A DNA stretch of 21,022 bases. Origin: a virus. Taxonomy: Duplodnaviria > Heunggongvirae > Uroviricota > Caudoviricetes > Schitoviridae. The stretch lies in IMG/VR virus record IMGVR_UViG_3300024257_000004. One strand, written 5' to 3'. Below are positions 2,885 through 21,022 of this stretch, one piece after another. Below the pieces are notes generated by a model, which did not search any database, was not told the origin of the DNA, and saw only the letters and a program-made list of their open reading frames with translations. A program made the position numbers and the translations under genes. The stretch's first letter is position 1. The number at the start of each line of letters is the position of its first letter.

Positions 2885-2893
2885 AAGTTAGTA

Positions 2894-2927
2894 CTAAGCT
2901 AGTATTAGATGAAGTATAGTATAAAAT
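2894..2927 (+). promoter_or_regulatory. Putative promoter (CTAAGC-N22-TAAAAT)
   Basis: CTAAGC 2894-2899, TATAGT 2915-2920, TAAAAT 2922-2927 in an AT-rich spacer with stops in all three forward frames. Confidence 0.35.
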
Positions 2928-2933
2928 AAATAT

Positions 2934-2949
2934 ACCTAATCGATTAGGT
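2934..2949. repeat. Perfect 16-bp palindrome ACCTAATCGATTAGGT
   Basis: ACCTAATC (2934-2941) is the reverse complement of GATTAGGT (2942-2949). It lies just 5' of an AAGGA at 2955-2959. Confidence 0.9.
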
Positions 2950-2956
2950 GATATAA

Positions 2957-3136
2957 GGATACAAGACAGAGCAGTATGGTTACAAGTTGGGAAATTCCGT
3001 ATTTGGCGATACTGGCCCACAGCTAAATGACCCTGTAGCTAGTTTTTCTGGGATAAACTTTGGTTCTGCAGATACTCCGTATGAGCCTGATAAGTACGCA
3101 TACTCATTGGGAAATATTCTTAGAGGTCATATTTAG
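2957..3136 (+). CDS. Unannotated small ORF (59 sense codons; 49 aa if TTG 2987 is the start)
   Basis: Stop-free frame GYKTEQYGYKLGNSVFGDTGPQLNDPVASFSGINFGSADTPYEPDKYAYSLGNILRGHI* fills the gap between two promoter-like spacers. No ATG in frame; start unresolved. Confidence 0.45.
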   Translation, partial: GYKTEQYGYKLGNSVFGDTGPQLNDPVASFSGINFGSADTPYEPDKYAYSLGNILRGHI

Positions 3137-3138
3137 AA

Positions 3139-3176
3139 TTAAGCTAACCTCAAGGATAGTTTAGATAGGATATAAG
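3139..3176 (+). promoter_or_regulatory. Putative promoter (TTAAGC-N21-TAGGAT; TATAAG nearby)
   Basis: TTAAGC 3139-3144, TAGGAT 3166-3171, TATAAG 3171-3176; AAGGA RBS 7 nt before ATG 3202. Confidence 0.35.
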
Positions 3177-3201
3177 AAAATAGGTATATAAGGAAAGTGT
3201 T

Positions 3202-3660
3202 ATGGAAACTACAGGAACTGGGTTAGGCTTACCCTACTTAACAAAAGATAACCAAGCGGTATTTGACTTTTCCGCTATTGGCGGTACAAACGCTGTTTTA
3301 GCGAACGATAAGTACAATCAGCAGCTGAATCTACTAGAATCTGGGAAGATAGGCCAATCTACGTTTGACAATAACATCGGTATGTTAAATAAAGGTATTC
3401 AAGATGACTATCGAAACGGTATAGATTTTGGCAATACGTCTACGCCGGGGACTACTGGCGACGGGTTATTCGGCATAGGAACTAAAGACCAATGGACTAC
3501 AGGTTTAGGTGCTGCTAACTTAGGTATGAGTTTAGCTATGATGCCTGGTCAAATGAGTTACATGAAGAAGCAAGGGCAATTACTTGATCAACAGTTAGAT
3601 GCTAATAGAGAAGCTGTAGCTAGAAAGAAAAGTATCGAATCTGCATTTAGAGGAGCATAA
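3202..3660 (+). CDS. Small ejection (internal virion) protein, putative N4 gp52 counterpart (152 aa)
   Basis: Gly/Asn-rich N-half, hydrophobic GLGAANLGMSLAMM helix, then Q-rich coiled-coil end; no Cys. About 150 aa and two genes upstream of the vRNAP, as for N4 gp52. Confidence 0.65.
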   Translation: METTGTGLGLPYLTKDNQAVFDFSAIGGTNAVLANDKYNQQLNLLESGKIGQSTFDNNIGMLNKGIQDDYRNGIDFGNTSTPGTTGDGLFGIGTKDQWTTGLGAANLGMSLAMMPGQMSYMKKQGQLLDQQLDANREAVARKKSIESAFRGA

Positions 3661-3663
3661 ACT

Positions 3664-4860
3664 ATGAGTAAATACTTGAAATTCAGTAGTCCTGGTCAAC
3701 TTATGGATCCTACTGCGGCAGTTAGGGGTAGTTTATCGGACTTACAGGCTACGCTAATAGGTCAACAAGAACGTGATGATAAATTAGCAAAGGAAGCTGA
3801 AGCAAAACGAAGATGGGAAGCGTCGTACGGGTTGCAGAAAGCTACTGCAGGTAGGCAAGCTAAAGAGTTCACTGACGCACAGACAGCTAAGGCGCATCAA
3901 CTAGGTTTATCGCAAGCTATGAGTGGTATAGCCACGTCCGGTGATGTAGTAACAAATCAAAAAGCCATAGACGCAGCTAATGCATTTAACTTAGGTTTAA
4001 ATAAAGCTAATACAGAAGGTGAAGCCGCTTACGACAAAAGGATGAAGGACTTAGGTGATAAGATAAGCACAGCACTACTACCTACTACCCCAACTAAAAC
4101 TTCAGGATCTGGTATTTCGTATACTACGGAAGATGTAAAAGGTACTCAGTACGAAAAATACAAAGACCCTAAGACAGGTAAACGTTATTTACTGGATCCT
4201 AGCAGCCCTCTTGGTGAAATGGTCTACGGAGCACCTGAAGAAAGCGGTACCGTAGTATTAGATCCTATAGAGGTTAAGAAGAAAGCTCCTTCGGACTCAG
4301 AGATTGCTGACGCTATACTGAAAAGTAGTGGAGTAACTAAAGGTATGGAAGACACAGCATTAGCTGGATTCATTAAAGCTAAAGAACAAGCTGTACCTAC
4401 TGCTAAAACAGAAAGAAAACTTAGAACTGATAGTGACGAGTACAAAGCTGAAGTAGCTGATTCAATCAGAAACTACATGAAACAACATCCTGAATCTGCT
4501 ATTGAAGGTATGGCTGCACTTAATGCTATGAAAGATGCTGAATTTAAGTATGCCCCAGAACTACAGCTATCTAGGGATAAAGCTGCGTTAAAGAAGATAG
4601 CTGACATAGAAGATCACGAAAGAAAAATGATAAGAATAAAAGCTCAACAGGACAAAAGTAAAGGCGCTAACGCGTCAACTAAAATAAGTCAAATAATAGG
4701 TCAATCGGGTAACCCAGAGGACATCAAAAGTGTAATTGAGAAGTGGAAAGCTAGTGATAATAAAATTTCAGATAAGACTATACTTAACAGGTTATACGAA
4801 CTTGGCGCATCAGATATGAAAGAACTAGGCTGGTTTGACTTCGGTAAAAAAGATTTATAG
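3664..4860 (+). CDS. Ejection (internal virion) protein, putative N4 gp51 counterpart (398 aa)
   Basis: Ala/Lys/Glu-rich helical protein with no Cys, directly upstream of the vRNAP gene. No lysozyme/SLT motif recognised. Confidence 0.6.
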   Translation: MSKYLKFSSPGQLMDPTAAVRGSLSDLQATLIGQQERDDKLAKEAEAKRRWEASYGLQKATAGRQAKEFTDAQTAKAHQLGLSQAMSGIATSGDVVTNQKAIDAANAFNLGLNKANTEGEAAYDKRMKDLGDKISTALLPTTPTKTSGSGISYTTEDVKGTQYEKYKDPKTGKRYLLDPSSPLGEMVYGAPEESGTVVLDPIEVKKKAPSDSEIADAILKSSGVTKGMEDTALAGFIKAKEQAVPTAKTERKLRTDSDEYKAEVADSIRNYMKQHPESAIEGMAALNAMKDAEFKYAPELQLSRDKAALKKIADIEDHERKMIRIKAQQDKSKGANASTKISQIIGQSGNPEDIKSVIEKWKASDNKISDKTILNRLYELGASDMKELGWFDFGKKDL

Positions 4861-4867
4861 TAGCAGT

Positions 4868-4933
4868 TTAAAGTAAGCTTTAAGACTAAATTAGATAACA
4901 TAAGAGATAATAAGCAAAACTAACAACGTTAGT
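4868..4933 (+). promoter_or_regulatory. Leader of the vRNAP gene: two hairpins and a TAAGC motif before the RBS
   Basis: TTAAAG-TAAG-CTTTAA (4868-4883); ACTAAC-AAC-GTTAGT (4919-4933) directly abutting AAGGAG (4934-4939); GTAAGC 4873-4878 with TAACAT 17 nt downstream. Confidence 0.45.
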
Positions 4934-4949
4934 AAGGAGACTATCTCAT

Positions 4950-7900
4950 ATGACTACAGAAGAATTTTCAAAACTTACAGGGCAATACGTAGCCGGTAAT
5001 GTAAGTAGAATGGATACTAAATCAGCCGAAAAGAAAGCTAGACTACAACAAAAACATGATCAATCGTTATACGGTGTAACAGCTCAAGACGGTCAGTATT
5101 GGGATGATGCAGATTCGTCATCAGACTACAGACTACAAGGTGCTGATGCTCCTGAAATATACCATGAAATGACTCCTACTGGAGATACAAAAAATGTACG
5201 AAGTAAAGTATACCAACAAGTTGCTTACGAAAATCAAATACCGTTAGAAGACGCTGTAAGGATAGTAGACCAACAAGCAGAAGCTAGGGCTATTGACCAA
5301 GAGTACAGACAATCTCCACAATTCCAAATAGATAAACTAAATAATCCCAATGATCCATACTACCAAAGTCAAACACTAGGTGAAGGTATTGGACTTACAG
5401 GTAGAAACACCGGTGGATTAACGTCATTCGACGTATACCATGCTGGTGATGTAGCTACTAAAGCCGGTAGAGAAGATATACAAGCTGCTGACTGGGAAAA
5501 GTATAAAACAGGAGAAAAGGGCTACTTCGGTAGAGAACTACTGAATAATCCAGAGTATGTAAATAAGATGATTAGTGAAGGGTATATGGTACCGGGAGAA
5601 GCTGATGATCCAGTAGAATATGCTAAACAAAAAGAACTATACGATGTAGCAAAAGAGCAAAAGTTAGGTTTACACGGGCATGAGACAGTAGATCCAAGAG
5701 TAGCTCAAGCTATGCAGCAGACTAGTTACGCATACAGTAAAAGCCCTGAAGCAAAAGCCGAAAGAGCTAAACAAGCTGGTATTGAATACCAAAAAGCTAC
5801 ACAAGGTTGGCTTGAAGGTGCGGCTAAAGCTGCAGGTACAGGATTTGTAAAAGAATTAGCTGTAGACTTAGCTGATTGGGTTGGTGATACTACTAATATG
5901 TACGACATAGGTACTGAAGAAGAAAAAACTGAAATGGTTAATAAACTATTCAATTACGTTCCCGCTACTAGCCAAGAGACAGTTCAGCAAGTAGAAGGAC
6001 TGAATAACATCGCATGGGATAGTAACCAAGATATAACTACTAGACTAGCTGCTATAGGTAAATCGATAACACTAGCTGCCCAAGACGGAGAGATGCTAGG
6101 TAGTTCACTAGGTGTGTTAGCTGCATGGTTAATTCCAGGTATGGCACTTACTAAAGGCCACAAAGTCGGTAAAGTTATGACTAAGATAGATAAAGGCGTA
6201 GACGCAGGTAAACTATCACGAACTAAAGCGGCTGGTATGAAAACTAAGAAATTATTAGGTACTAAAGAAGGTGTCGGATATGGACTTAGACAACAATCAG
6301 GTATGATTACTGGTGCACTGGGTAATATAAATGACCAATATGAGACATTCGTAGAAAACAACAATGGAGTTGAACTACAAGGTGCAGACAAAGCTGAATG
6401 GTTTGCTAGATCGTTCGGTGTACAAATGTTCAATCAGAACTTAGATGCAATTACTGCGGTAAGTATTATGAAGTCTCCAGGAATGTTGCAAGCAGCTAAA
6501 CAAAGTATTAAAGACGTAAGTGAAAAAGCATTCGGTAAAGCCATAGTAGGTATGAGTGTTGGAGTCGGTAAAGCAATTGCTCAAATGCCTAAAGAAGCGG
6601 CTCAAGAGTATACTCAGGGTATGATGGAACTATATAATGAAAGATTCGGAGCTGAAGAGTTCAAAGATACGGATACATTTACTAAGTTCATCACTAATCC
6701 TGAATTCGCCAAAGAGAAGACAGTTGATGCACTACTAGGTGCCGGTGGATCACTACAATTCAGCGCTATGGGTGCTATTAGCCAGGCTTCAGGTAAAACT
6801 AAAGATGTTGTAACTGAAACTATGAAGTCTGAAAAAGATAAGTTAGTTGAAGTTGAAAAGGCTGAAGCTAAAGCTCAAGACAAAACTACAACTATGGCTA
6901 ATATTAAACTTCATAATGATACCTACACTAAAGCTATAAGCGATAACGATGTAACTAAAGCTTATAGTACTATACAAGCAATGGAAGCTGAAGTTAACAA
7001 ACTTGCAGTAAACGATGAGAAATCTGCAACAGCCCTGAAAACTATGCTAAACAGTAAGAAGGCTGAGATTAAAACTAAGATCCAAGAGCAGGTTAAGGCT
7101 GAGAAAAGTATGTCAAACAAAGAACTTGTTGCTCTTGGCGCTGGAATAGAAGATAAAAAGGCATTCCTACAAGCAACAGTGGACTCTAGTGATATAGCTA
7201 CGGATGAAGCGTTCATCAAACGAAAAGGTAAAGCATTAGGTGTAGCGCCTCATACTGTAGACAATATGATAGAGCAAGCTAAAGCGTTTAGTCACATGGA
7301 TAAAAGCTCCGATGAAGTTAAAGGATTTAAAGCTAAAATCGATAAAATTAAAAGTTACAAGGCTGCCGGCTATGTTGACCAAGCTCAAGCTGAAACTAGA
7401 GAACTTGAGATGCTATTTGGTAAACACGAAGAAAAAAGCGACGAGTTATCTGCCGGACTTACTGAGTTAGAGCAAAAAATTGATAAAGCTGTAAAACAGG
7501 GTATACCAAACACACTAAAAGGTAAAGAGTGGTCTGCTGAGTACTCTAAGAGGTTAACTGAAAAGTTAGAATTACCTCAGAAGAAAGTAATACATCACAA
7601 AGACGGTACTAATACGGAAGTAACTTATAAAGAAGTAGTTAATAAGTTATTACACAAGTACTCGCAAAGAGATATGAAAGATAAAACTACATTCTCAGAA
7701 GGTGCTTATGGTGATCAACAAAGTTACGAAAACGCTAAAAAAGGTATAAGAAGAGTTGCTGCGATTAATAATATCAAACTAAGTACAATAGCTGGGAAAA
7801 AAGATTCAGCTAAAATCAAAGAACTAAGAACGAAAGCTAAATCTACAGACGCTGAAAAGGAAGAGTTAAAGTCACTACGTAAGCATTCAACATTAGATAC

Positions 7901-10900
7901 TTACAATATCGATCAAGAAGCTATAACGGACTTAAAAAAGAAAATTGCCAGAGAAGAGAAGAAACTTAAAACTATTACTTACGTAAAAGACAATGGTCCT
8001 AAAGCAGAAAAAAGTAAGAGGTACTATATCAAGTGGGAAAAAGGTAAGGGTAGTTACTCTAGTGTAGACAAGAAAGCTGAACATACTAAAAAGATTAAAG
8101 CACTTAAAGATGAAATTGGTAGTTATGGTATTTCTAGTAGAAGCAGAGATAAAGGTGATGTAGAAGCTCTGTTAGGCAAAGTCGATTCAGACATCGCTAA
8201 AAGTACTAATGCGATAGCTAAGCTTGAGATTTCAATCGCCAAAGCTGAAAAAGCTCTGGAGGACGAGGACTACTCCGATATTGAAAAAGACTTGGTTAAC
8301 GATGATATCAAACTAGAACAAGGTGCAATAACTAAACAGAAAGCTCACATTAGTGAAGTTAAAGCCGCTCAAGCTAAAGTACTAGAAGGTAGGCTAGACT
8401 ACAACGAAATGACAGAATTAGATGCCGCTATGGTAGAAGGTATGATGCATTCTCCGAAAGTAGAGGCACAAGAACACTATGCTATATTCAAAGAATACGG
8501 AATTCACATGGGAGAAGACGTAAACGCTAATGAAGCACTAGAATCACTGAATAAAGCTGTAAATGACTCATTGAATGAAAGTAAAGACGCACTTAAAGAC
8601 TTAATTGGCGTAGAGAGTACTGAGAGTAAATTTACTAAATTAGAAGAAGGATTAAAAAAGGTAGACTTAGGTAAGAAACTGCAAAGCATTCACGATTCTA
8701 CTAAAGAGTTAGAGGTACTACGGTATGACTTAAGTACTACTACCGGTGAAAAAGCTAAAGCTGCTCTAGAGGCTAAGATTGACGCTGCTGCTAAGAAGAT
8801 TGAGGATACTAAAGCAGAGATTCAGAACACAGCTAATACTGAATCCATGTTGGATAATAGCTACGGTAAGTCGTTACTATCTGACGAAAAATTCGCTAGA
8901 AGAGTGACACAAACTGTTAAAAACATGAAAAAAGACGATGGTGACTACAGTTTCATGAATGCTGATCCAGACACGTACTTACAGACTGACGCAAAAAATG
9001 TATCTATGTCAATGTCGATTGATTTAGATGCAGAAGAAAACGCAGCGTTAAAAGACTACTCAGTTAAAAAGGCGGATAAGCTATTTAAAGAGATAAAAAC
9101 TAACGATTCTACAAGTACTGCAGCAGCTGTAGTGTCAAATAGTCAAGCATTTATATTCTTAAAAGATCCAGCTACTGACTTAATTATTAGCAAGGATGCA
9201 GATGGTAATCATAGCATAAACCCGAATGTAGCACTAACACTGAGTTTAGTAGGTGATGAGTTTATGAAGACAAGAGCTTCAGAGCTTATATTCAATACTT
9301 GGGAAGATACCAAGAATATTTGGGGTATGCCTGAAGGTACATCGTATAACTCGAAAGCTCATAGGATAACTAAGAGTGCCGGCGCTAACCTATCATTCGT
9401 GGCTAACGAGTTAGGTACTCAAGCTAGAAAGGCTCTAGGTATCAAGTTTAAAGAAGACGCTACTGAAGAAATGGTAGCAATGTTCGATGGATCGTTAGGG
9501 TATAAAGTACTACAAATGCAGATGGCAGAAGGTAGAATTAAACGACACACAGGTAAGGACAAAAATGCTACATCAGTAATTAAAGCTGAAGATGTTGCAA
9601 CCGCTATGAAAACATTTATGCCTGGAACTGCCGTTAAACAAACTCAAAACAGAATGATGGTTCAATTATCAGATAAAATGGTGAAAGATAATGGGTTAAA
9701 AAAACTACAAGGTAACCAAGAAATGGAAGCCCTGTTAGATACATTCGGTGCTAAACACAACGAAAAAGGCCCAAGATTTTCCCCAAGAACTACTAAAGAG
9801 CGTGAAAATAGGACGTTAGAGGCTAGAAGAACTCACGTAGTTAAGGATAACATAGGAGATAAAACAGTTACAGCGGTAGATAAACATGAGAATCTGGAAT
9901 ATAACCTAGATACAGAAGCTATCGACAAACTTATCCAACTAGAAGAAACTAATAAAAAAGCATTCAACGCAAGACTTGGTATTGTTGATTTAACACTACC
10001 GGAGTGGGCTGACGATAAGACATTAGATTCAGTAGATTCTCAAGATGCTGTAAATACAGAGAAACTGCGGGCTTGGGAAGACATAAAAGCATTAAGAGAA
10101 TCAATGAAAGGCAATAATGCTAAACCTAATACGCTGTACTTCAACTGGTTTATGGCTAAATCTGGAAGACTATTTATAGATTCAAATACCATTAACCCTC
10201 AAACTGAAAAACAAATCCAAAGATGGTTAATTACGGCTAAAGAACAAGAAGCAGAAATTGATATCAACAATGATAAGCAAGAAATGGAAGTGTTTAAAGT
10301 AGCTATATCACAAGGGCTAGGTATTGATATTGATAAGCAGGGGTACGAGAATTCTATAAAAGATGGTACAAAAATACTAAGTATGTCAGAAGAAGAACTT
10401 AATATTGCTGAAAAAACTATAATGAACGAAGGTAAGTACACTACTAAAGCGGGGTTAGTTATTAAATCAGAACATTTAGGCCATACAGTTGCTACACTAA
10501 ATAACATTAGAAAGTATAAAAATGCGAAAAATGGTAAATTCACTACTAACCAAGTACTAGAGCTGGATGGTATTACGAATGGGCTTATAGCTAAGTTACT
10601 ACAGATACCGTTAGCTGATATTAATAAAACTATAAAACACCTACGAAGAGGTGGAATTGTTATCGGAGTTACTGAGAAAATTGGATACTTAGACTACGTT
10701 GAGAATAAAGATGAAAAAGATTCATACCAAAATGTATCAGGGCAGTTAAAAGAGCCTAGCTACGAAGACTGGACAAAGCGAATGCCGAAACGGCTATTTA
10801 ATTCTATGACAGCTCTTATGCCTAAAATATTTAGTGAAGAAGACGCTAGTGAGATCACTAAAGAAGGTAGAGATATCGCTAAAGACCCTACTATGCACTT

Positions 10901-12689
10901 CCAGTTCGGAGCTACGCTTAGGTCAATTAAAGCTAATGTTGGTAATAAGATGTCGGATGGTTTTGCGGATAAAATGCTAGAAGCTGCTAACAGAATCGCT
11001 AATGGTAAAGATGTTACAGACTACCCTGCAGCGGACTTAGTTAAAGTATTAGCTTATCACACAGAAAAAAAGGACGCTAAAGTATTTGCCGCAAACTTAG
11101 CTAAACTACTAAAGACTAAAAGTTATGAAGAAATCTCATTTGCTACGCTTGGTATTAAGACATCAGAAGAGAACAAAGCTGGGCATATTACTACGACTAA
11201 GCCGACGTTACAACGTTACTTTAAAGAGTTTACAGAAGCTACGTACGGTGAGCAAGTTGCTGGTGTACTAAAAAATGAATTTGGTGATCTTGTTGAATCG
11301 AATAGAATTATCACTAATAATACAAAAACCCAGTACGCAGGGTTCAAGATAATACTAGAAGATAATATCGCACGAATAGAAGAAAACCAAGGTAAACCTA
11401 TTAGTTTAGCGCAAGAACGAGAACTGCTACAAGAGTTAGCTGATGCATTCCCTACAGTTGAGTCGCCATTTGGTGGGTTAATCGAGTTTATAGATAATAA
11501 ACTACAAAAGTCGGATGAAGCTAGTAAACTATCAATTCAAGCTGCAGTTAACAACAAAAAGTACAAAGGTAAATCTGACAGTAAGTCTAGTGTAACTCTG
11601 CAGATAGTCCTAAGAGATATAGAAGCCGCAGTTAGTTCTGGGGCTGTACTGCCAATTCACTTCACAGATGCTAGTGTTATGGCAGAAGTAATGAATGACT
11701 ACGGATTTACAGAAGTACATGATGCAAAAGTATTAGGAATTACTCAAGCAGTAGGAGCAACTAAAGCTTACAATAAGGGATTCATAGATATTGCAGCAAA
11801 CTACAACTTGTTAGAGAAATACCATGACTCGTTAGTTAAAACAATGAGTATGATGACTCAAGGTCAGATAGATAGAGTTAACGCTATGTTCGCCGCAAGT
11901 CAAACAGCTACGGAAAAAGAAGCTAACCCTAGAAAGAAGTACACGCCAACTAGGTTTAGTACGGATCAAGTACAAGAGTACAACGAAGCACTGGAAGAGG
12001 CAGGAATTAATCCAGAGAGTATACCAGACGTGGCTGAATTTAATAGACTAACAATGGAAGAGATACTAGAGCAAGGGCTGGAATACGCTAACGAAATTAC
12101 AAAAAGAAAACAAGAATTATTTGATAATGTAATACACGCTTCACAGATACCCCTAAATAAAGACTCTATAATGTCGTACAAAAAAGGTGACATAAAGGTT
12201 AACACGTGGGAAAACGGTCCTGCTGTGTTTAGTGTACTAGAAAATCCGGTAGAAATAGAACTACAAACAGAAATTCTAGAGACAAAAGCTGAAGTAACTG
12301 CGGATACGGTAGAAAGATGGACTAAACAAGCTAGAAAACACTTAGTTGATAACTCAGATTTATACCCGGTACTGTATAACTTAAAAACGGATGTAGTTAC
12401 AGGTGGTATCGATACAATATACGATAATATAGCAAGAACAATAGGTAAAGACTTAAGAGAATCGGCTACACAGGATATACTATTTGAAGGGATACTTGAA
12501 CCTAAGTTATCTGAAAAAGAAAGAACAGATGTAGTTAATGAAATAAGAGATCTTAGAAAGGCTATACACGACAGCAGAACTCCTAAAGGCAATACTCAGG
12601 AAGAAAGCGGTACAATCGATGCAGAAATGACAGGTGAGGAATTCACAGATGAAGAGAATGAGGTTTGTAATGATGGGGGAATTTGTTAA
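4950..12689 (+). CDS. N4-like virion-encapsidated RNA polymerase, N-terminal plus polymerase part (2579 aa)
   Basis: Single-subunit RNAP motifs in order: SGRLFIDSNTINPQ (R1740, nt 10167); motif A ELDGITNG (D1873, nt 10566; N4 DGVTNG); motif B RDIAKDPTMHFQFG (R1974/K1978; N4 RGIAKNPLTITIYG); LPIHFTDAS; motif C EVHDA (D2258, nt 11721). Long Cys-free N-terminal region with amphipathic and coiled-coil segments. Confidence 0.93.
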   Translation: MTTEEFSKLTGQYVAGNVSRMDTKSAEKKARLQQKHDQSLYGVTAQDGQYWDDADSSSDYRLQGADAPEIYHEMTPTGDTKNVRSKVYQQVAYENQIPLEDAVRIVDQQAEARAIDQEYRQSPQFQIDKLNNPNDPYYQSQTLGEGIGLTGRNTGGLTSFDVYHAGDVATKAGREDIQAADWEKYKTGEKGYFGRELLNNPEYVNKMISEGYMVPGEADDPVEYAKQKELYDVAKEQKLGLHGHETVDPRVAQAMQQTSYAYSKSPEAKAERAKQAGIEYQKATQGWLEGAAKAAGTGFVKELAVDLADWVGDTTNMYDIGTEEEKTEMVNKLFNYVPATSQETVQQVEGLNNIAWDSNQDITTRLAAIGKSITLAAQDGEMLGSSLGVLAAWLIPGMALTKGHKVGKVMTKIDKGVDAGKLSRTKAAGMKTKKLLGTKEGVGYGLRQQSGMITGALGNINDQYETFVENNNGVELQGADKAEWFARSFGVQMFNQNLDAITAVSIMKSPGMLQAAKQSIKDVSEKAFGKAIVGMSVGVGKAIAQMPKEAAQEYTQGMMELYNERFGAEEFKDTDTFTKFITNPEFAKEKTVDALLGAGGSLQFSAMGAISQASGKTKDVVTETMKSEKDKLVEVEKAEAKAQDKTTTMANIKLHNDTYTKAISDNDVTKAYSTIQAMEAEVNKLAVNDEKSATALKTMLNSKKAEIKTKIQEQVKAEKSMSNKELVALGAGIEDKKAFLQATVDSSDIATDEAFIKRKGKALGVAPHTVDNMIEQAKAFSHMDKSSDEVKGFKAKIDKIKSYKAAGYVDQAQAETRELEMLFGKHEEKSDELSAGLTELEQKIDKAVKQGIPNTLKGKEWSAEYSKRLTEKLELPQKKVIHHKDGTNTEVTYKEVVNKLLHKYSQRDMKDKTTFSEGAYGDQQSYENAKKGIRRVAAINNIKLSTIAGKKDSAKIKELRTKAKSTDAEKEELKSLRKHSTLDTYNIDQEAITDLKKKIAREEKKLKTITYVKDNGPKAEKSKRYYIKWEKGKGSYSSVDKKAEHTKKIKALKDEIGSYGISSRSRDKGDVEALLGKVDSDIAKSTNAIAKLEISIAKAEKALEDEDYSDIEKDLVNDDIKLEQGAITKQKAHISEVKAAQAKVLEGRLDYNEMTELDAAMVEGMMHSPKVEAQEHYAIFKEYGIHMGEDVNANEALESLNKAVNDSLNESKDALKDLIGVESTESKFTKLEEGLKKVDLGKKLQSIHDSTKELEVLRYDLSTTTGEKAKAALEAKIDAAAKKIEDTKAEIQNTANTESMLDNSYGKSLLSDEKFARRVTQTVKNMKKDDGDYSFMNADPDTYLQTDAKNVSMSMSIDLDAEENAALKDYSVKKADKLFKEIKTNDSTSTAAAVVSNSQAFIFLKDPATDLIISKDADGNHSINPNVALTLSLVGDEFMKTRASELIFNTWEDTKNIWGMPEGTSYNSKAHRITKSAGANLSFVANELGTQARKALGIKFKEDATEEMVAMFDGSLGYKVLQMQMAEGRIKRHTGKDKNATSVIKAEDVATAMKTFMPGTAVKQTQNRMMVQLSDKMVKDNGLKKLQGNQEMEALLDTFGAKHNEKGPRFSPRTTKERENRTLEARRTHVVKDNIGDKTVTAVDKHENLEYNLDTEAIDKLIQLEETNKKAFNARLGIVDLTLPEWADDKTLDSVDSQDAVNTEKLRAWEDIKALRESMKGNNAKPNTLYFNWFMAKSGRLFIDSNTINPQTEKQIQRWLITAKEQEAEIDINNDKQEMEVFKVAISQGLGIDIDKQGYENSIKDGTKILSMSEEELNIAEKTIMNEGKYTTKAGLVIKSEHLGHTVATLNNIRKYKNAKNGKFTTNQVLELDGITNGLIAKLLQIPLADINKTIKHLRRGGIVIGVTEKIGYLDYVENKDEKDSYQNVSGQLKEPSYEDWTKRMPKRLFNSMTALMPKIFSEEDASEITKEGRDIAKDPTMHFQFGATLRSIKANVGNKMSDGFADKMLEAANRIANGKDVTDYPAADLVKVLAYHTEKKDAKVFAANLAKLLKTKSYEEISFATLGIKTSEENKAGHITTTKPTLQRYFKEFTEATYGEQVAGVLKNEFGDLVESNRIITNNTKTQYAGFKIILEDNIARIEENQGKPISLAQERELLQELADAFPTVESPFGGLIEFIDNKLQKSDEASKLSIQAAVNNKKYKGKSDSKSSVTLQIVLRDIEAAVSSGAVLPIHFTDASVMAEVMNDYGFTEVHDAKVLGITQAVGATKAYNKGFIDIAANYNLLEKYHDSLVKTMSMMTQGQIDRVNAMFAASQTATEKEANPRKKYTPTRFSTDQVQEYNEALEEAGINPESIPDVAEFNRLTMEEILEQGLEYANEITKRKQELFDNVIHASQIPLNKDSIMSYKKGDIKVNTWENGPAVFSVLENPVEIELQTEILETKAEVTADTVERWTKQARKHLVDNSDLYPVLYNLKTDVVTGGIDTIYDNIARTIGKDLRESATQDILFEGILEPKLSEKERTDVVNEIRDLRKAIHDSRTPKGNTQEESGTIDAEMTGEEFTDEENEVCNDGGIC

Positions 12690-15600
12690 ATGATATGTCC
12701 AGTTAAAGGTATAAAGTTATCAATCAGAGACGTGATTGATAACGAAAAGAGCGTACAGAAAGCTAGAAATGTCATAACTAAACGAATTGACTTATTCTGG
12801 AGTGATTATGAAAAAACATCAGATAAGACTTACACCGCGGAAGCTGTAAGCACGTGGAAAAAAGAACAGTTCGACCTACTAATAAAAAAGAAGGGTATAG
12901 CCCCTCTTCCTAGTGAAAATTTGACTAAATACTCTATTGGGGATAGAAGAGTCAGAGCCAGTAAAACAGGTAAAACTGATAACACAGCTAGTATACTAAT
13001 GGTAGATAAGAATACTGACGGTACTATGAGCTTACTGACAATGACACACAAAACGGGAAAACTGACTAAAGTAGACTTAGATAGTAACTACAATAGCCCT
13101 AAAATGGATTATGATAAACAAGTAATTGACGGTATATACCAAACGGTCAGCAGCAAAGTTAAAGGAATCAGAAACCAACCTAATAAACAATTAGGTTCAG
13201 ATATTAGGGGTAAAGCCGCAGAACTAGAAGGCTATGCTCAAGAGTATGGTAATTTAACCAATGATCCAGAACAAGTTAAAGCCCTGGCAAAAGAACTAAA
13301 TAGAAAATCAGATGTGCAGGTTAGTGTGGAACATGAAGGTTGGTTAGTAGACGTAGTAGATATGTTTATTGGTAAAGACAAAAAGTTCTTACCGCAAAAT
13401 CTGCAAGTGTACCTTAATAAAAAAGGACCAAAGTCACTAGGTACGTTTGTCCCATACGCTGAAGAAAAAATCGGAGCAGGTATTTACATAACTGAAGGTA
13501 ACGAAGCTAGAGTTGCTGGTAACCAAATGGGGCCTATGGAGAAATACGTACATGAATTAATACATGGGGCTATGTACTATGGGCTAGAAAGTGGAGATCC
13601 TGAAGTTGCAGGGGCTAGAGAAAGGTTAGAAAAGCTATATCACAAAGTGGTTGATAAACTTGTATGGCAAGACTTGATGCCGAGCGGATCAGACTATGAC
13701 TATAAGGAAGAAAAGAAAATAGCAGTAGCTATGTTAAAACACATGAGGGAAACTGATGGTTTGCATGAGTTTATCACATACGGTCTGACAAATGAAAATA
13801 TGATTAAGAAGTTACAAACAGTAACTATGTATATAGATAAGTCCGTAAAAGCTAAGAATGTCTGGGAGGCACTTAGGTTTATGGCACAAGACTTAATTGA
13901 TATGATTATGAGTACTGTGCGAAAAGAAACAGTTAATACCACAGGGCATAAACTACTGATAAAATTAAGTATGGACATAGCTAAAGCTAATAATACGGCT
14001 GCTAAAACATATGCTACATTCACGATGGGGGAAAAAGCTGGGGAGTTTATTGATAAGCTGAATGGCGCAATTAATAACGTAACTGACAAGTTGAAAGAGA
14101 ACCAGTTAGACAAAGACTTGCCGAAGTTACCAGCAAACGCTACTAAGCTTGAAACAGCTAAGTGGTTAGCAGGCAACTTAAGTAAAATGGTAATGGATGA
14201 TAGAATGAGACCGCATTATGAAGCAGCACTTACAGCAGCTGGGCTAAAACCGGAAGGAATTACCCAACAGTTAATAAGAGCATTCAGTCAAGATGATAAC
14301 TTACAAAGAACTGTTGAGAGGCTTGGGTTACTGTCGATGGACATTGACGATAAACGATTCGCTATGGGGCAAGCTATAAGTTCAACAATTAGAAGTGCTT
14401 GGAAAGGCAAGCTAAGTAAGGCTGACAATGAATTAGTTACAGAAGTTTTACTGGATAATGATATTCAAGTTTTAGGTAATACAGGAAAAGGTATTAGTAA
14501 ATTATTCAGCAGTGATACTGAAGTAACTAAACAGATAGATAAGTACCGTAAAGTAATTATAGATAAAGCTGCCACTAAAGCAGACGCTAACTACTATTTA
14601 AATGAAGCAAAAGGACTGGCGAGATACTTATTAACACATAAAGCTAGTGAAATACAGCTACTGAATGCTAATAACATAGCACGGCAACTAGGTACAGCTA
14701 ATCAGGTAGATAAAGCTGATCCCGCTCTGGTAGAAGCTATTGACAAGTTAAGTTCATTAACGGCATTGAAGGATACAGATGCAGCTAAAAAAGATAGGAT
14801 TAAAGAACTGTTTGAGTCAGAGCCTGACGGTATACACACAGTACTGAACCTACATAAAGGGTTTGTAGCTGACACAAGAGAGAAGCTATTCTCTGATAAT
14901 GATATAAATTACATTAAAGGGTATACGAAAGAGATATTTGATGCTGATATAGATATTAAAGTAGCGAAAATTAGCGATAAGAAGGACATGATTGCGCAAG
15001 GGTACCAGTTTATAGCGCCACTAGTTAAATCAGAGTTGGATAATACTAGAGGGGAATTTGCTTTATATAGAAGTAACTTACACGCACTTCAAGGGTATAA
15101 TAAACAAGCGTTTAGAACTACCGATACTGCCGGAAAAGGTACTACTATTGCCGATATTCTGTATAAAACGAATTTAGATCCTAAGTTTGTTAAGATTAGA
15201 GAAAAAGCTATGATAGCTGAAATTAGCGGTAATGTGGAGACTGCTAGAAGTAAATGGTATGAAAGTGAATTTGACGAATTGCCGATAAGTAATATGGTAC
15301 CTGTGTATAACAAAGATGGTAAAGTTATCACATATAGGTACATGATGTCTAAAGCTGAGAAAAAGAATTTACTAGCTCAAGATACTAGGGCGAATTTGGT
15401 ATTAGGGCAGATGTACGCTAACAATATGGATAAGGTTTCTTCTGGGGAGATGAATAAAAAAGTAATTAATACAGTTCTTGAAGACATGGAAGATAACTAT
15501 ATTCCAGGTAAAACTTATGGTAAAAATGGTAAAGAGTACATCATGGTGGGTCCGGACGGCGTAGTTGATGACAAGTATAAAGAGATGTGGAGATTATTGC

Positions 15601-16757
15601 CTAGTGCAGCTAAACATAACTTAGAGCAGAAAGCTAAAGAACTATTAGAAGAAGATGAAACGTTTAAAGGTATTGCTGTACGGCGTGATTTAGTTAGGCA
15701 ATACTTCGGGGAAAGGGATTTTTCTATTGGAGATACTAGGCTTATGGGATTAAGCCCTAAAGTGATAAGACAAGCCGTAGTGTTAGCCGAACGAATATGG
15801 AAGAGTATAGTAGGTATAGCTAAAGCTAATATCGTAATTAAAACTCCGGCTGTACTGTTTGGTAATATTATAAGTAACTTGGTACTTAGTGTACAATTAG
15901 GTATGGATCCGTTGAGTGTACTAAAATTACAGTGGAGTGGGCTAAAAGACTTACAAGCCTACAAGAAAACTGAGGGTAAGTTAAATGAACTGGCTATTAA
16001 GATTAGTAGTAATAAGGCTCAAGGTAAGCCGTATAAAGCACTCGAAGCACAAGTTAAAGTGTATAAGAAAGAGTTAAATAGGAATCCTGCTCACGTATTA
16101 ATCAAAGAAGGGTTATTTAGTTCAATAGTAGAAGATGTTAACCCTGAAGATAGACGATCAAATGACCCTGTTGGTAGATGGATAGATAAGAAAACTGAAA
16201 ATTGGCCTGAAGTGGTTAAGCAGGGTACGAATTATCTGTATCTTACTGAAAGAACTGCTCCGTACCAAATGATGCTTACGGCTACGCAATATAGTGATTT
16301 TATTGCTAGATATGGGTTATACCACGGTACAAAAAAGAAACAAGAGCGTGCGATTGAAAGCAAGCATGGTAGAAAAACTACTCCTGCTGAAAGAAAAAAG
16401 CTTGAAGATAGTACATTAGAGTTAGTAACGAATGCGTTTATTAACTATAATACACTAGATAACAAGTATGTTAAATACGCGAATGACATGGGGTTAGTAA
16501 TGTTTACTAAATTCTTTGTCGGTATTCAGCAAGTACTTAAAAAAGGTTTAGCTGATAAGCCTGTTAATTTCATACTCGCGATGTTAGGACAAGTATTGTT
16601 ATTTGACGTTGAAGATATTACTGAACATTCAGTAATAACTAAAAACTATGAGGCAATACTTCATAACCCGTTAGAAATTATGCGAGAAGTGTATACTCCT
16701 TCGTCTATCGAGTTACTAAGCGTGCCTCATGATGTTATACAGAAACTAGCTGCATAA
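12690..16757 (+). CDS. Separately encoded C-terminal part of the N4-like vRNAP, with zincin-like HExxH motif (1355 aa)
   Basis: Starts at the base after the upstream TAA, same frame, with GGGGGA 9 nt upstream. YVHELIH (H288/E289/H292, nt 13551-13565) and HEFITYGLTN (E360) resemble the HELIH...EFMAWALTN segment I recall from the N4-type vRNAP C-terminal domain. Combined length 3934 aa versus about 3500 for N4 vRNAP. Confidence 0.8.
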   Translation: MICPVKGIKLSIRDVIDNEKSVQKARNVITKRIDLFWSDYEKTSDKTYTAEAVSTWKKEQFDLLIKKKGIAPLPSENLTKYSIGDRRVRASKTGKTDNTASILMVDKNTDGTMSLLTMTHKTGKLTKVDLDSNYNSPKMDYDKQVIDGIYQTVSSKVKGIRNQPNKQLGSDIRGKAAELEGYAQEYGNLTNDPEQVKALAKELNRKSDVQVSVEHEGWLVDVVDMFIGKDKKFLPQNLQVYLNKKGPKSLGTFVPYAEEKIGAGIYITEGNEARVAGNQMGPMEKYVHELIHGAMYYGLESGDPEVAGARERLEKLYHKVVDKLVWQDLMPSGSDYDYKEEKKIAVAMLKHMRETDGLHEFITYGLTNENMIKKLQTVTMYIDKSVKAKNVWEALRFMAQDLIDMIMSTVRKETVNTTGHKLLIKLSMDIAKANNTAAKTYATFTMGEKAGEFIDKLNGAINNVTDKLKENQLDKDLPKLPANATKLETAKWLAGNLSKMVMDDRMRPHYEAALTAAGLKPEGITQQLIRAFSQDDNLQRTVERLGLLSMDIDDKRFAMGQAISSTIRSAWKGKLSKADNELVTEVLLDNDIQVLGNTGKGISKLFSSDTEVTKQIDKYRKVIIDKAATKADANYYLNEAKGLARYLLTHKASEIQLLNANNIARQLGTANQVDKADPALVEAIDKLSSLTALKDTDAAKKDRIKELFESEPDGIHTVLNLHKGFVADTREKLFSDNDINYIKGYTKEIFDADIDIKVAKISDKKDMIAQGYQFIAPLVKSELDNTRGEFALYRSNLHALQGYNKQAFRTTDTAGKGTTIADILYKTNLDPKFVKIREKAMIAEISGNVETARSKWYESEFDELPISNMVPVYNKDGKVITYRYMMSKAEKKNLLAQDTRANLVLGQMYANNMDKVSSGEMNKKVINTVLEDMEDNYIPGKTYGKNGKEYIMVGPDGVVDDKYKEMWRLLPSAAKHNLEQKAKELLEEDETFKGIAVRRDLVRQYFGERDFSIGDTRLMGLSPKVIRQAVVLAERIWKSIVGIAKANIVIKTPAVLFGNIISNLVLSVQLGMDPLSVLKLQWSGLKDLQAYKKTEGKLNELAIKISSNKAQGKPYKALEAQVKVYKKELNRNPAHVLIKEGLFSSIVEDVNPEDRRSNDPVGRWIDKKTENWPEVVKQGTNYLYLTERTAPYQMMLTATQYSDFIARYGLYHGTKKKQERAIESKHGRKTTPAERKKLEDSTLELVTNAFINYNTLDNKYVKYANDMGLVMFTKFFVGIQQVLKKGLADKPVNFILAMLGQVLLFDVEDITEHSVITKNYEAILHNPLEIMREVYTPSSIELLSVPHDVIQKLAA

Positions 16758-19074: not shown

Positions 19075-19785
19075 TTATTCTGACTCTGCGGCCATACATC
19101 CTTCGAAAAGGTACTTGTGATCCTCAGGTAAGGCATCGAATATAGCATTAGCTAAGTCTCTGATTTCCCATAATGCTGCTTTAGCTGAACGTAGTGCTAA
19201 GAAATTCTGTAAAGATCTAGCATTGATAGTCCAAGCTAACTCAGTCTTGTAGGACTCAGGTAAACAGTACTTAGCTTTGTCATTAGATACACCTATTGCT
19301 AATACAGTACGTAGTCCTTCTAGTGCTAAGCAGGATTGCTGATCTACTACCGAATCTCCAGTATAAACTAAATACTTACTAGCTCGTTCCATATCATATG
19401 ACGCAGTAAATCTATCATCAGAATACATTACAAAAGCATCCTCTTCTTTCAGTTCTTTGAGTGTGTAGCGAGTTGACTTCACACTAGGACTAGCTATTCT
19501 ATGTCTGGCTAGTTCTTGTAGTAATGCCCTAGACACCTCTGATATATCAAATGAGTATGAAATGTGCTCCAGTGTAGAGGCGTGCTTGAATTTGTTACCC
19601 ACACGTTCTATAAGTTCTCTGTCTTTAGGACCGCATACAACAACGCCATCTCTGTTTATGCTAGCAGGCCTATCGTCTATAAACGTATCCGATTTGTCTC
19701 CGCTAGCCCAACATTTACGAATAGCGTGTGAGGCTATATGTAATGGTGTGTGGTGTAATAATTGTACTGTTGGTTTATTACTCAT
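19075..19785 (-). CDS. thyX: FAD-dependent thymidylate synthase ThyX (236 aa)
   Basis: KHASTLEH, SRALLQELARHRIASPSVKSTRY (RHR-x7-S-x-R ThyX motif), WTINARSLQNFLALRS, WEIRDLA. Confidence 0.97.
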   Translation of the reverse strand: MSNKPTVQLLHHTPLHIASHAIRKCWASGDKSDTFIDDRPASINRDGVVVCGPKDRELIERVGNKFKHASTLEHISYSFDISEVSRALLQELARHRIASPSVKSTRYTLKELKEEDAFVMYSDDRFTASYDMERASKYLVYTGDSVVDQQSCLALEGLRTVLAIGVSNDKAKYCLPESYKTELAWTINARSLQNFLALRSAKAALWEIRDLANAIFDALPEDHKYLFEGCMAAESE

Positions 19786-19991: not shown

Positions 19992-20325
19992 TTTGCTGTT
20001 CCATTTCTGCTATAAGAAACTCCACGTAGTGCTTGGCTTTACGGAGGTCTTCAAGTCCATTCTTATCTTTATACCTAGTTACATACTTTACTACGTTACC
20101 TTGGCAAAAACTAAGGTCATTAGCCATTATGTATTCCAACGGCTGTATACCTTTATTCTTGTAATGGTCACCTCCATGTTGAATGTCAAATGGGCTAGGT
20201 TTAGTAGGTTCCGGTTCATCTTTACATACATGAAGTAATCCGTCATAATGTGTTACACCGCACAGCGGGCATGTGTCCGATACTGGTGTGTACTCTGTTG
20301 TTATGTAATCGTATGGGCTTCCCAT
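19978..20325 (-). CDS. DUF3310 / T7 gp1.7-like nucleotide kinase with an N-terminal Cys/His motif (115 aa)
   Basis: GGDHYKNKGIQPLEYIMANDLSFCQGNVVKYVTRYKDKNGLEDLRKAKHYVEFLI is a typical DUF3310 core; N-terminal CPLC-x3-H-x5-H-x-C; TGATG overlap with the RNR gene. Confidence 0.8.
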   Translation of the reverse strand: MGSPYDYITTEYTPVSDTCPLCGVTHYDGLLHVCKDEPEPTKPSPFDIQHGGDHYKNKGIQPLEYIMANDLSFCQGNVVKYVTRYKDKNGLEDLRKAKHYVEFLIAEMEQQNGTG

Positions 20326-21022
20326 CAGTTATCCTTCTTATCAAATTTACTTAGGTCGTTTCTAACTTGACCAACTTGGTACGATACATTATCAATTTCT
20401 TGCAGTGCTGATGCTTTACCGTTAATGTTTCTGTATTCATCGAACCATTGTTCGATATCATTCTTCTGTACATTATAGATAGGTTCAAGTTTAAGTTCCT
20501 TAAGCCGTCTATCTGTCCAGTACTGAATGAAGTGATTACAGATTTCCTGGTTAAATCCAGGCACCGCACCATCTTCAAGTAGGTACTTAGCCCACTCCAT
20601 TTCACGTTCTGCTGTCTCCTTAGCCATGTTAGTAGCTAATTCCTTGAACCATCCTGAGTTAAACAGGTGTGCTGTAGTAGTTGACTTGCTTAGTCTACGC
20701 AGTGCTGTTGATCCAGTTGCTGTGTGTACAGACATCTCATCAGTAGCAATTTTAATCAGCAGTTGGCTAAAACCTTGTGCACAGTTATCGTACGCTTTAT
20801 TCAATGTCCATGAAGTAAAGAACGAGAACGGGAATTTGATACCTTCTAAGAAGAATACACCTAGTAGTAACTCAATTAGTAACTTTTGGTGTTCTTCTGA
20901 GTCCGTCCACCCCGATTTAACTGCTGATATAAATCTTTCAGCTAGATCAAGTTCAAGCTCGATACGTCCCATGATGTGAGGATCAGTGTAGATGATGTCC
21001 AGGAATTCTTGCGCTTTAGCAC
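20325..21022 (-). CDS. nrdB: Class I ribonucleotide reductase beta (R2) subunit, 5'-truncated by the window edge
   Basis: LEGIKFPFSF (EGIxF), IATDEMSVH, YWTDRRLKEL...PIY, C-terminal LQEIDNVSY. The frame stays open from the ORF-track ATG (20972) to the window end (AKAQEFLDIIYTDPHI-M), so the true start lies outside. Confidence 0.88.
   Translation of the reverse strand, partial: AKAQEFLDIIYTDPHIMGRIELELDLAERFISAVKSGWTDSEEHQKLLIELLLGVFFLEGIKFPFSFFTSWTLNKAYDNCAQGFSQLLIKIATDEMSVHTATGSTALRRLSKSTTTAHLFNSGWFKELATNMAKETAEREMEWAKYLLEDGAVPGFNQEICNHFIQYWTDRRLKELKLEPIYNVQKNDIEQWFDEYRNINGKASALQEIDNVSYQVGQVRNDLSKFDKKDN

Follow-up and report, generated by a model that had tools for sequence, protein, structure and literature searches.

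A thermonuclease-fold domain at the N-terminus of the virion RNA polymerase in an uncultured clade of N4-like phages

RESULTS

A split virion RNA polymerase gene with a thermonuclease-like head

We analyzed a 21,022-nucleotide (nt) stretch of DNA from a Schitoviridae virus (IMG/VR record IMGVR_UViG_3300024257_000004), hereafter the window, which, judging from its sequence, is a very divergent N4-like phage. Its central element is a virion RNA polymerase (vRNAP) split over two genes, and our analysis concerned the N-terminus of the large piece (P0001; 2579 amino acids [aa]), where a domain of the staphylococcal nuclease (SNase), or thermonuclease, type is interrupted by a helical insertion (Table 1). 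The segment in question (window 5082-5678, plus strand) lies in the frame of the open reading frame 4950-12689 and corresponds to residues 45-243 of P0001. Every motif from which the domain had originally been predicted was present, NKMISEGY and AKEQKLGLHG included.

P0001 matched the virion RNA polymerase family phrog_2206 (E 4.6e-67) with residues 273-2406 on positions 111-1977 of the 3406-position profile, and the second piece covered the C-terminal third of the same profile. A tblastn search with the second piece retrieved 473 phage records, annotated as vRNAP, with the Alteromonas AD45 phages as the best matches (26% identity), followed by classical N4-like phages. At the profile level, the protein belongs to the N4 gp50 family (phrog_2206), polymerase core included. 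The start codon at position 4950 was supported by the upstream ribosome-binding site and by relatives with an identical MTTEEF beginning. Homology, together with synteny with upstream genes of ejection-protein size, suggests that the SNase-headed vRNAP is packaged in the virion and ejected from it.

TABLE 1 Features of the vRNAP locus, with positions in the window
Feature	Position	Strand	Evidence or remarks
398-aa gene upstream of vRNAP	3664..4860	+	Position of N4 gp51-type ejection protein; context
Ribosome-binding site TAAGGAG of the vRNAP large-piece gene	4933..4939	+	10 nt upstream of ATG 4950; read from the sequence
vRNAP large piece (P0001, 2579 aa)	4950..12689	+	SNase head, putatively membrane-associated N-terminal region, T7-like polymerase core; phrog_2206 match
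SNase (thermonuclease)-fold domain, residues 46-243	5085..5678	+	AlphaFold2 pLDDT 85.8; VIA Z 9.6 to 1sta_A; hhalign 96.8-98.4% to PF00565 thermonucleases
N-terminal part of SNase core, residues 46-73 (strands beta1-beta3)	5085..5168	+	Carries DDADS and R61-x4-D66-A-P-E69-x2-H72; strands in model; columns invariant or nearly so
DDADS motif, residues 52-56 (D53, D55)	5103..5117	+	In 24/24 covering family members
RLQGADAPEIYH, residues 61-72 (R61, D66, A67-P68, E69, H72)	5130..5165	+	hhalign pairing; conservation ranks R61 9, D66 1, E69 2, H72 11 of 290
Helical insertion, 83 aa, residues 74-156	5169..5417	+	Omega-loop position of SNase; helices in model
C-terminal part of SNase core, residues 157-243 (alpha1, beta4, beta5, alpha2, alpha3)	5418..5678	+	GYFGR195EL, EGY, AKEQKLGLHG; hhalign E 2.4e-10; secondary-structure order as in SNase
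GYFGREL (G191, F193, R195)	5520..5540	+	R195 25/25; position 193 Y or F 25/25; aligned to YGR of thermonucleases
Moderately hydrophobic helix, residues 382-400, candidate membrane anchor	6093..6149	+	Kyte-Doolittle 1.66; flank net charge -2 (N), +6 (C)
Second vRNAP piece (1355 aa, C-terminal domain)	12690..16757	+	Abuts first piece; phrog_2206 E 4.6e-167, profile 2333-3383; tblastn to N4-like vRNAPs
ThyX thymidylate synthase	19075..19785	-	PF02511, E 4e-41; downstream of vRNAP
Ribonucleotide reductase small-subunit fragment	20325..20972	-	PF00268; downstream of vRNAP

Predicted fold of the N-terminal domain

Structure prediction with AlphaFold2 was run on an alignment of the domain family (A2; 25 sequences, 290 columns, 30% mean column identity) and yielded a model with a mean predicted local distance difference test score (pLDDT) of 85.8 and a predicted template modeling score (pTM) of 0.80. 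The model contained strands within residues 42-66, a block of helices at 85-149, a helix at 159-172, strands at 186-190 and 196-198, and helices at 201-209 and 221-236. With the block 74-156 taken as an insertion, the elements follow the order beta1-beta3, alpha1, beta4, beta5, alpha2, alpha3 of SNase, and the predicted model thus comprises the five-stranded barrel and three helices of the SNase oligonucleotide/oligosaccharide-binding (OB) fold in their expected sequence.

Structural comparison by VIA with 48,161 PDB chains placed staphylococcal nuclease first (1sta_A; Z 9.6; root mean square deviation, 3.1; 113 of 137 residues; model residues 46-243), ahead of Tudor-SN (Z 8.8, 8.6, and 8.1) and the SN-like folds of extended Tudor domains (Z 5.5-3.9), with the first unrelated fold at Z 3.7. 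In Foldseek, the top 50 PDB matches were all SNase or SND1 chains (probability ~0.9). In BFVD, a phage thermonuclease of COG1525 ranked first (probability 0.96), and among the nearest ESM Atlas clusters all family sets were PF00565.

Profile-level homology to thermonucleases

Three relatives of P0001 compared directly with the Pfam SNase profile, whose cut-off is 21 bits, gave borderline scores: 21.3 bits for P0006, 19.9 bits for P0029 (profile positions 3-104 of 107), and 18.9 bits for P0019. P0029, a relative without the insertion, reads DDGDT, as canonical members do, and RLPGIDTPE; its best well-covered plasmid matches in tblastn were annotated thermonucleases (E 1e-3). Five of these plasmid thermonucleases, each confirmed as PF00565 (44-74 bits), were aligned as a reference set. 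Using hhalign, the 25-sequence family was aligned with the five references at a probability of 96.8% (E 2.4e-10; residues 157-255), which rose to 98.4% (E 5.8e-15; 103 columns) with the insert columns removed. In the latter alignment, R61-x4-D66-A-P-E69 was paired with R-x4-D-T-P-E and R195 with the arginine of YGR, exactly as had been claimed in the original prediction, which saw in these residues the retained equivalents of SNase R35, D40, E43, and R87. By profile homology, the family belongs to PF00565. Together with the predicted fold and the borderline Pfam scores, this bears out the proposal of an interrupted SNase-like domain at the vRNAP N-terminus. PHROGs assigned no family to residues 1-300 of P0001, and phmmer searches of P0029 and P0006 against PDB sequences returned nothing useful.

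Conservation of the active-site residues

Conservation was examined in A2, with counts such as 24/24 referring to the family members that cover a column and 25/25 to the whole alignment. Only six columns were invariant, D66, E69, and R195 among them, and D53, D55, S56, R61, G64, P68, and H72 were nearly so. Sequence by sequence, D53, D55, R61, D66, E69, and R195 were kept in every member covering them, and these columns ranked 7, 8, 9, 1, 2, and 4, respectively, of the 290 in conservation. In the numbering of S. aureus SNase, we take D53 and D55 to be D19 and D21 (of DGDT; Ca2+ site), R61 to be R35, D66 to be D40, and A67-P68 to be T41-P42. Likewise, we take E69 to be E43 and R195 to be R87, with F193 at the Y85 position and G191 at the D83 position.

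The Ca2+ ligands of SNase (D21, D40, and the T41 carbonyl) accordingly have counterparts in D55 (24/24) and D66 (25/25), with D66-A67 aligned to D-T of D-T-P-E. The catalytic residues E69, R61, and R195 were paired by hhalign with the invariant glutamate and two arginines of the reference thermonucleases and occurred in every covering relative. D55 of DDADS, which had been put forward as a plausible D21 equivalent, matches that position of the canonical DGDT motif. The glycine reported at the D83 position (G191, four residues before R195) is indeed there; since one of the five bona fide references also has glycine at this site, it carries little weight. Because six catalytic-type columns are top-ranked in a 25-sequence family at 30% mean identity, the motif match is not due to chance, and such a ranking at this level of divergence points to selection on chemistry rather than on the fold alone.

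A helical insertion of variable length at the omega-loop position

The interruption of the domain had been estimated at about 120 residues. The insertion itself spans only about 83 residues (74-156), since core helix alpha1 and strand beta4 already occupy residues 157-190. Its helices were modeled at residues 85-95, 99-120, 123-131, 136-139, and 143-149, and it sits between the D-A-P-E strand and helix alpha1, at the position of the omega loop. This loop can be deleted in engineered S. aureus nuclease. The size of the insertion differs from relative to relative, many having ~62 aa, others ~80-100 aa, and P0029 just 13 aa, which indicates a lineage-variable elaboration.

Conserved positions within the insertion were R84, K86, and V106-D107. 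In the R84-S85-K86 segment (window 5199-5207), R84 was kept in most relatives and K86 in 24/24 covering relatives, and ordinary thermonucleases have no counterpart of it. His72 (window 5163-5165), three residues past the catalytic glutamate, was found in 24/24 insert-bearing relatives, is tyrosine in P0029, and is absent from the references. His72, R84, and K86 could serve as additional ligands for metal or substrate in a remodeled active site.

The VIA search gave no convincing fold match for the insertion. Profile searches of PDB sequences with the family profiles matched only FliA (insert region, E 0.024) and spidroin, and both were treated as chance. The FliA match (window 5208-5450, approximately residues 87-167, versus 6pmi_F residues 95-177) drew attention in view of the domain's fusion to an RNA polymerase; it had no structural support and is probably due to chance. 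A sigma factor-like identity of the insertion was dropped, as the structural matches to residues 82-165 were all weak and unrelated (Z <= 3.7).

Distribution of the domain among relatives

A scan of 1.84 billion representative proteins retrieved 27 clusters at E <= 0.001. In all but one of them, the match lay inside approximately the first 300 residues of the target protein, some targets being short fragments; the one exception, P0028, was a weak match at residues 503-558. By blastp, the longer relatives also shared the polymerase core with P0001. In four genomic contexts, the SNase-headed protein was always the first vRNAP piece, with a length of 1018, 1514, 2510, or 3564 aa that varies because lineages split the vRNAP gene at different points. 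SNase-headed vRNAPs form an uncultured clade in which the domain always stands at the head of the first piece.

A search by profile for independent homologues of 121-525 aa yielded nothing but fragments encoded on short contigs; a free-living SNase-like relative was not among them. No match was obtained by tblastn of P0001 residues 1-300 or of the relative P0019 against 50,697 phage records. Hidden Markov models of the phage family and of thermonucleases both gave negative scores on the vRNAPs of N4-like Pollock and of Alteromonas AD45-P3 (first 500 residues of each), and a PF00565 search of the whole AD45-P3 genome gave no match. These results agree with the earlier remark that such a domain is not known from the N4 vRNAP itself.

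A comparison with one metagenomic relative, P0002 (window 4950-7030; residues 1-693 of P0001), showed identities of 99% for the first 300 residues and of 91% for all 693. The polymerase cores of the two proteins were only ~25% identical, and residues 693-1612 had no detectable similarity. Such a pattern points to recombination, in which two phages that are otherwise distantly related would have swapped the N-terminal module along with its SNase head. In another SNase-headed relative, P0008 (3564 aa; locus L010), residues 2860-3000 near the C-terminus gave a weak DprA-like match (phrog_768, E 1e-4). P0008 had no phrog_2206 match, yet its polymerase core was shared by blastp.

A candidate membrane-associating region and comparison with N4

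The N-terminal domain of N4 gp50 was flexible and unresolved in two 2026 cryo-electron microscopy studies (PMC13434306, PMC13492108). For this domain (residues 1 to approximately 919), these studies describe predicted helical subdomains, membrane-spanning helices at 224-278, and incorporation into nanodiscs, with no nuclease mentioned; the region is ejected, and membrane tethering and early genome injection were proposed as its roles (PMC13434306, PMC13492108). The alignment of P0001 to phrog_2206 starts at residue 273 (profile position 111), which indicates that the SNase head stands in place of, or is added to, the extreme N-terminus found in N4-type enzymes. The phage protein described here and N4 gp50 share a protein family, a gene neighborhood, an N-terminal region preceding a hydrophobic, putatively membrane-associating segment and a long linker to the polymerase core, and presumably also ejection into the host at infection. 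They differ in that the N4 N-terminal domain consists of two helical subdomains and membrane-spanning helices with no enzymatic domain, and in that the polymerase here is split into two genes.

Downstream of the SNase head, the candidate anchor helix MLGSSLGVLAAWLIPGMAL gives way to a segment rich in lysine, with 8 K/R among 30 residues (window 6093-6270; residues 382-440). Segments 1-200 and 201-400 of P0001 are acidic (isoelectric point [pI] ~4.6), and residues 401-1000 are basic (pI 8.5-9.3). Several relatives have a comparable helix and charge pattern, their hydrophobicity often falling under the usual transmembrane thresholds. Judging by the phrog_2206 offset, the helix at 382-400 may correspond to the predicted N4 membrane-spanning helices 224-278 (PMC13434306). 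Its charge pattern is compatible, at low confidence, with an N-out orientation of the anchor, which would put the SNase head on the periplasmic side, where Ca2+ is available.

Gene neighborhood

The 398-aa gene upstream of the vRNAP gave no match in family searches, PHROGs included, and its assignment as gp51-type is by position only. A gene order of ~160 aa, ~400-550 aa, and then the SNase-headed piece, as found here, recurs among the relatives in the four genomic contexts. The split of the vRNAP falls at window 12687-12692, where the genes for 2579 and 1355 aa abut. Split points differ among the relatives (L001 1564-13288; L008, L009, and L010), with pieces of 2495 and 1409 aa in Alteromonas phage AD45-P3, where the annotation reads "potential frameshift," and elsewhere of 1514 and 2466 aa, of 1018 aa and a further piece, or of 3564 and 1259 aa. 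The ThyX and ribonucleotide reductase genes further downstream are ordinary nucleotide-metabolism cargo.

DISCUSSION

Our data indicate that the N-terminal 245 residues of P0001 hold a true member of the SNase superfamily, and we consider it probable that this member is a working Ca2+-dependent phosphodiesterase or nuclease that cuts nucleic acid at the entry site. None of the Ca2+ ligands (D55, D66, and the A67 backbone) or catalytic residues (E69, R61, and R195) is missing, and the family conserves no positions more strongly, which argues that the domain is most likely a working enzyme. Since it heads a region that in N4 is membrane-associated and needed for early genome injection, it should reach the envelope or cytoplasm at the start of infection. 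The SNase head would then arrive at the cell envelope or in the cytoplasm before any phage gene expression and could cut nucleic acid at the entry site, whether host DNA or RNA or competing DNA. Within the capsid, it might be restrained by an unfolded pre-ejection state, by its acidic surface, or by the insertion acting as a lid.

Several observations weigh against this view. At the level of direct sequence searches, hmmscan of P0001 residues 1-300, of residues 40-245, and of the whole protein against Pfam gave no SNase match; phmmer of residues 1-300 against PDB sequences returned only a chance match to YdbL (E 0.38); and neither the 7- nor the 25-sequence family profile recovered an SNase chain when run by hmmsearch on PDB sequences. 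The original prediction had called for comparison with PF00565 with and without the inserted residues, and this check came out in favor of the SNase reading, as predicted: hmmscan gave nothing with the insertion in place, and a strong profile-level match emerged once its columns were removed. The Foldseek search of the PDB yielded no E-value <= 0.001, the values being only 0.1-0.4. The domain is acidic in 25/25 relatives (pI 4.2-6.1, compared with 8.8-9.8 in the five references), which is unusual for a non-specific nucleic-acid enzyme, and Gly216 replaces the residue after the GYA motif that is aromatic in 5/5 references. An active nuclease packed beside the genome would be a hazard needing restraint. 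Free Ca2+ in the bacterial cytoplasm is far under the requirement of S. aureus nuclease.

A possible though less likely alternative is that the SNase fold has no nuclease action in vivo and has a binding or structural task within the ejection machinery, such as holding the leading genome end or docking onto a gp51-like tunnel protein, in the manner of the non-catalytic SN-like domains of Tudor-SN and extended Tudor. The acidic surface, so unlike the basic references, the change of the conserved aromatic to Gly216, and a large insertion adjoining the active-site loop are consistent with such a role, and non-catalytic SN-like folds with inserted domains do appear among the structural matches. 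The domain inserted in Tudor proteins is a Tudor barrel, located elsewhere in the fold, and most such SN-like modules are without catalytic residues. Tudor-SN (SND1) and extended Tudor structures (2WAC, 3BDL, 4QMG), which gave the second- to fourth-best VIA matches (Z 8.1-8.8), resemble the phage domain as SN-like OB folds that tolerate an extra inserted domain; the phage insertion is helical, lies at the omega loop, and leaves the catalytic set intact. This is where the binding-module explanation meets its main difficulty: SN-like domains that only bind lose the catalytic set, and here all six residues are kept in every covering sequence and are top-ranked. The danger that a packaged active nuclease poses to the genome, as touched on in a passage of PMC7697877, and the implication of the N4 N-terminal region in membrane association and early genome injection, not nucleolysis (PMC13434306, PMC13492108), also fit a non-catalytic module.

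The predicted anchor invites a bolder and rather unlikely version of the nuclease reading, in which the SNase head would be a periplasm-facing, Ca2+-activated nuclease, held at the entry pore by the helix at 382-400, silent in the capsid and switched on after ejection. Its targets there could be foreign DNA that enters the periplasm, whether from superinfecting phages or by transformation, which it would destroy; alternatively, it could process an end of the phage's own DNA. The omega-loop insertion would be the lid or switch.

It is improbable that the domain works as an SNase-type phosphodiesterase on something other than bulk nucleic acid, for instance on a small nucleotide such as a signaling oligonucleotide or on a phosphodiester-linked polymer of the surface or periplasm encountered on the way into the cell. 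An intact catalytic set combined with an acidic surface poorly suited to polyanionic DNA or RNA would agree with such a substrate, as would the loss of the base-pocket aromatic, the presence of H72 and the insert residues R84 and K86 beside the active site, suggestive of a remodeled substrate site, and the location of the domain on the envelope-crossing end of an ejection protein. The closest sequence relatives, however, are ordinary thermonucleases, and we know of no SNase-fold enzyme that acts on a small-nucleotide signal or an envelope phosphodiester. That short motifs came together by chance in a mostly helical and unrelated N-terminal region, as the missing direct Pfam and PDB sequence matches of P0001 and Foldseek E-values above 0.1 might be held to suggest, is effectively refuted by the profile-profile alignment, the VIA ranking with SNase-type folds alone at the top, the uniformly SNase neighbors in the ESM Atlas and BFVD, and a natural insert-less relative (P0029) that almost reaches the Pfam cut-off over the whole SNase profile.

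Returning to the SNase domain as a probable nuclease, its resemblance to the thermonuclease family (PF00565, COG1525; 1STA, 1STN; WP_013008955.1, WP_213707345.1) covers the OB-fold core, an identical order of strands and helices, and equivalents of the DGDT, R-x4-D-T-P-E, and Y-G-R motifs as well as of GY(A) and AK..GLW. The phage domain forms the N-terminal head of a giant, presumably injected RNA polymerase, whereas thermonucleases are small secreted enzymes or lipoproteins; it has an 83-aa helical omega-loop insertion, the extra His72, and Gly216, is acidic, and lacks a signal peptide. Its beta1-beta2 hairpin is shorter, with 6 residues between the D55 and R61 equivalents, compared with 14 between the corresponding aspartate and arginine of S. 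aureus nuclease. In overall layout, the protein can be likened to the gp16-type ejection proteins of T7, whose leading end carries an N-terminal enzyme head (a lytic transglycosylase in T7) and which are ejected through the tail into or across the envelope. Both have an enzyme domain heading a large ejected internal protein, although they belong to different protein families and differ in chemistry (glycosidic versus phosphodiester). A further parallel is artificial: according to work cited in a passage of PMC7697877, engineered T4 heads with capsid-targeted staphylococcal nuclease had their packaged DNA cut. Here too, an SNase-fold enzyme would be co-packaged with a phage genome inside the head; the T4 system digests the DNA, whereas the natural domain would have to be restrained until ejection.

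In full-text literature searches, we found no paper that connects N4-like phages, Schitoviridae, or internal virion proteins with a thermonuclease or SNase. Among the BFVD matches, large proteins of uncultured phages already carry automatic UniProt names that point to an SNase-like OB fold. A nuclease head on an injected vRNAP has probably not been described before for N4-like phages, and such a phage would probably deliver a ready-made nuclease together with its polymerase. The N-terminal region of N4-type vRNAPs is the least understood part of a much-studied enzyme, and a lineage whose vRNAP starts with a recognizable enzyme, its active-site residues fully conserved, offers a concrete candidate activity for the leading end of the ejected protein. 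The domain is also a natural example of a large domain inserted in the SNase omega loop. If it is active, how a nuclease can be stored beside 70-100 kb of DNA without cutting it becomes a clear mechanistic question; if it is inactive, an SNase fold has been recruited as a structural part of a DNA-ejection machine with its catalytic residues kept, which needs explaining. Should the periplasmic nuclease prove true, it would be the first enzymatic activity of a schitovirus ejectosome besides transcription. Collectively, our findings suggest that ejection proteins are used as carriers of pre-made effector enzymes.

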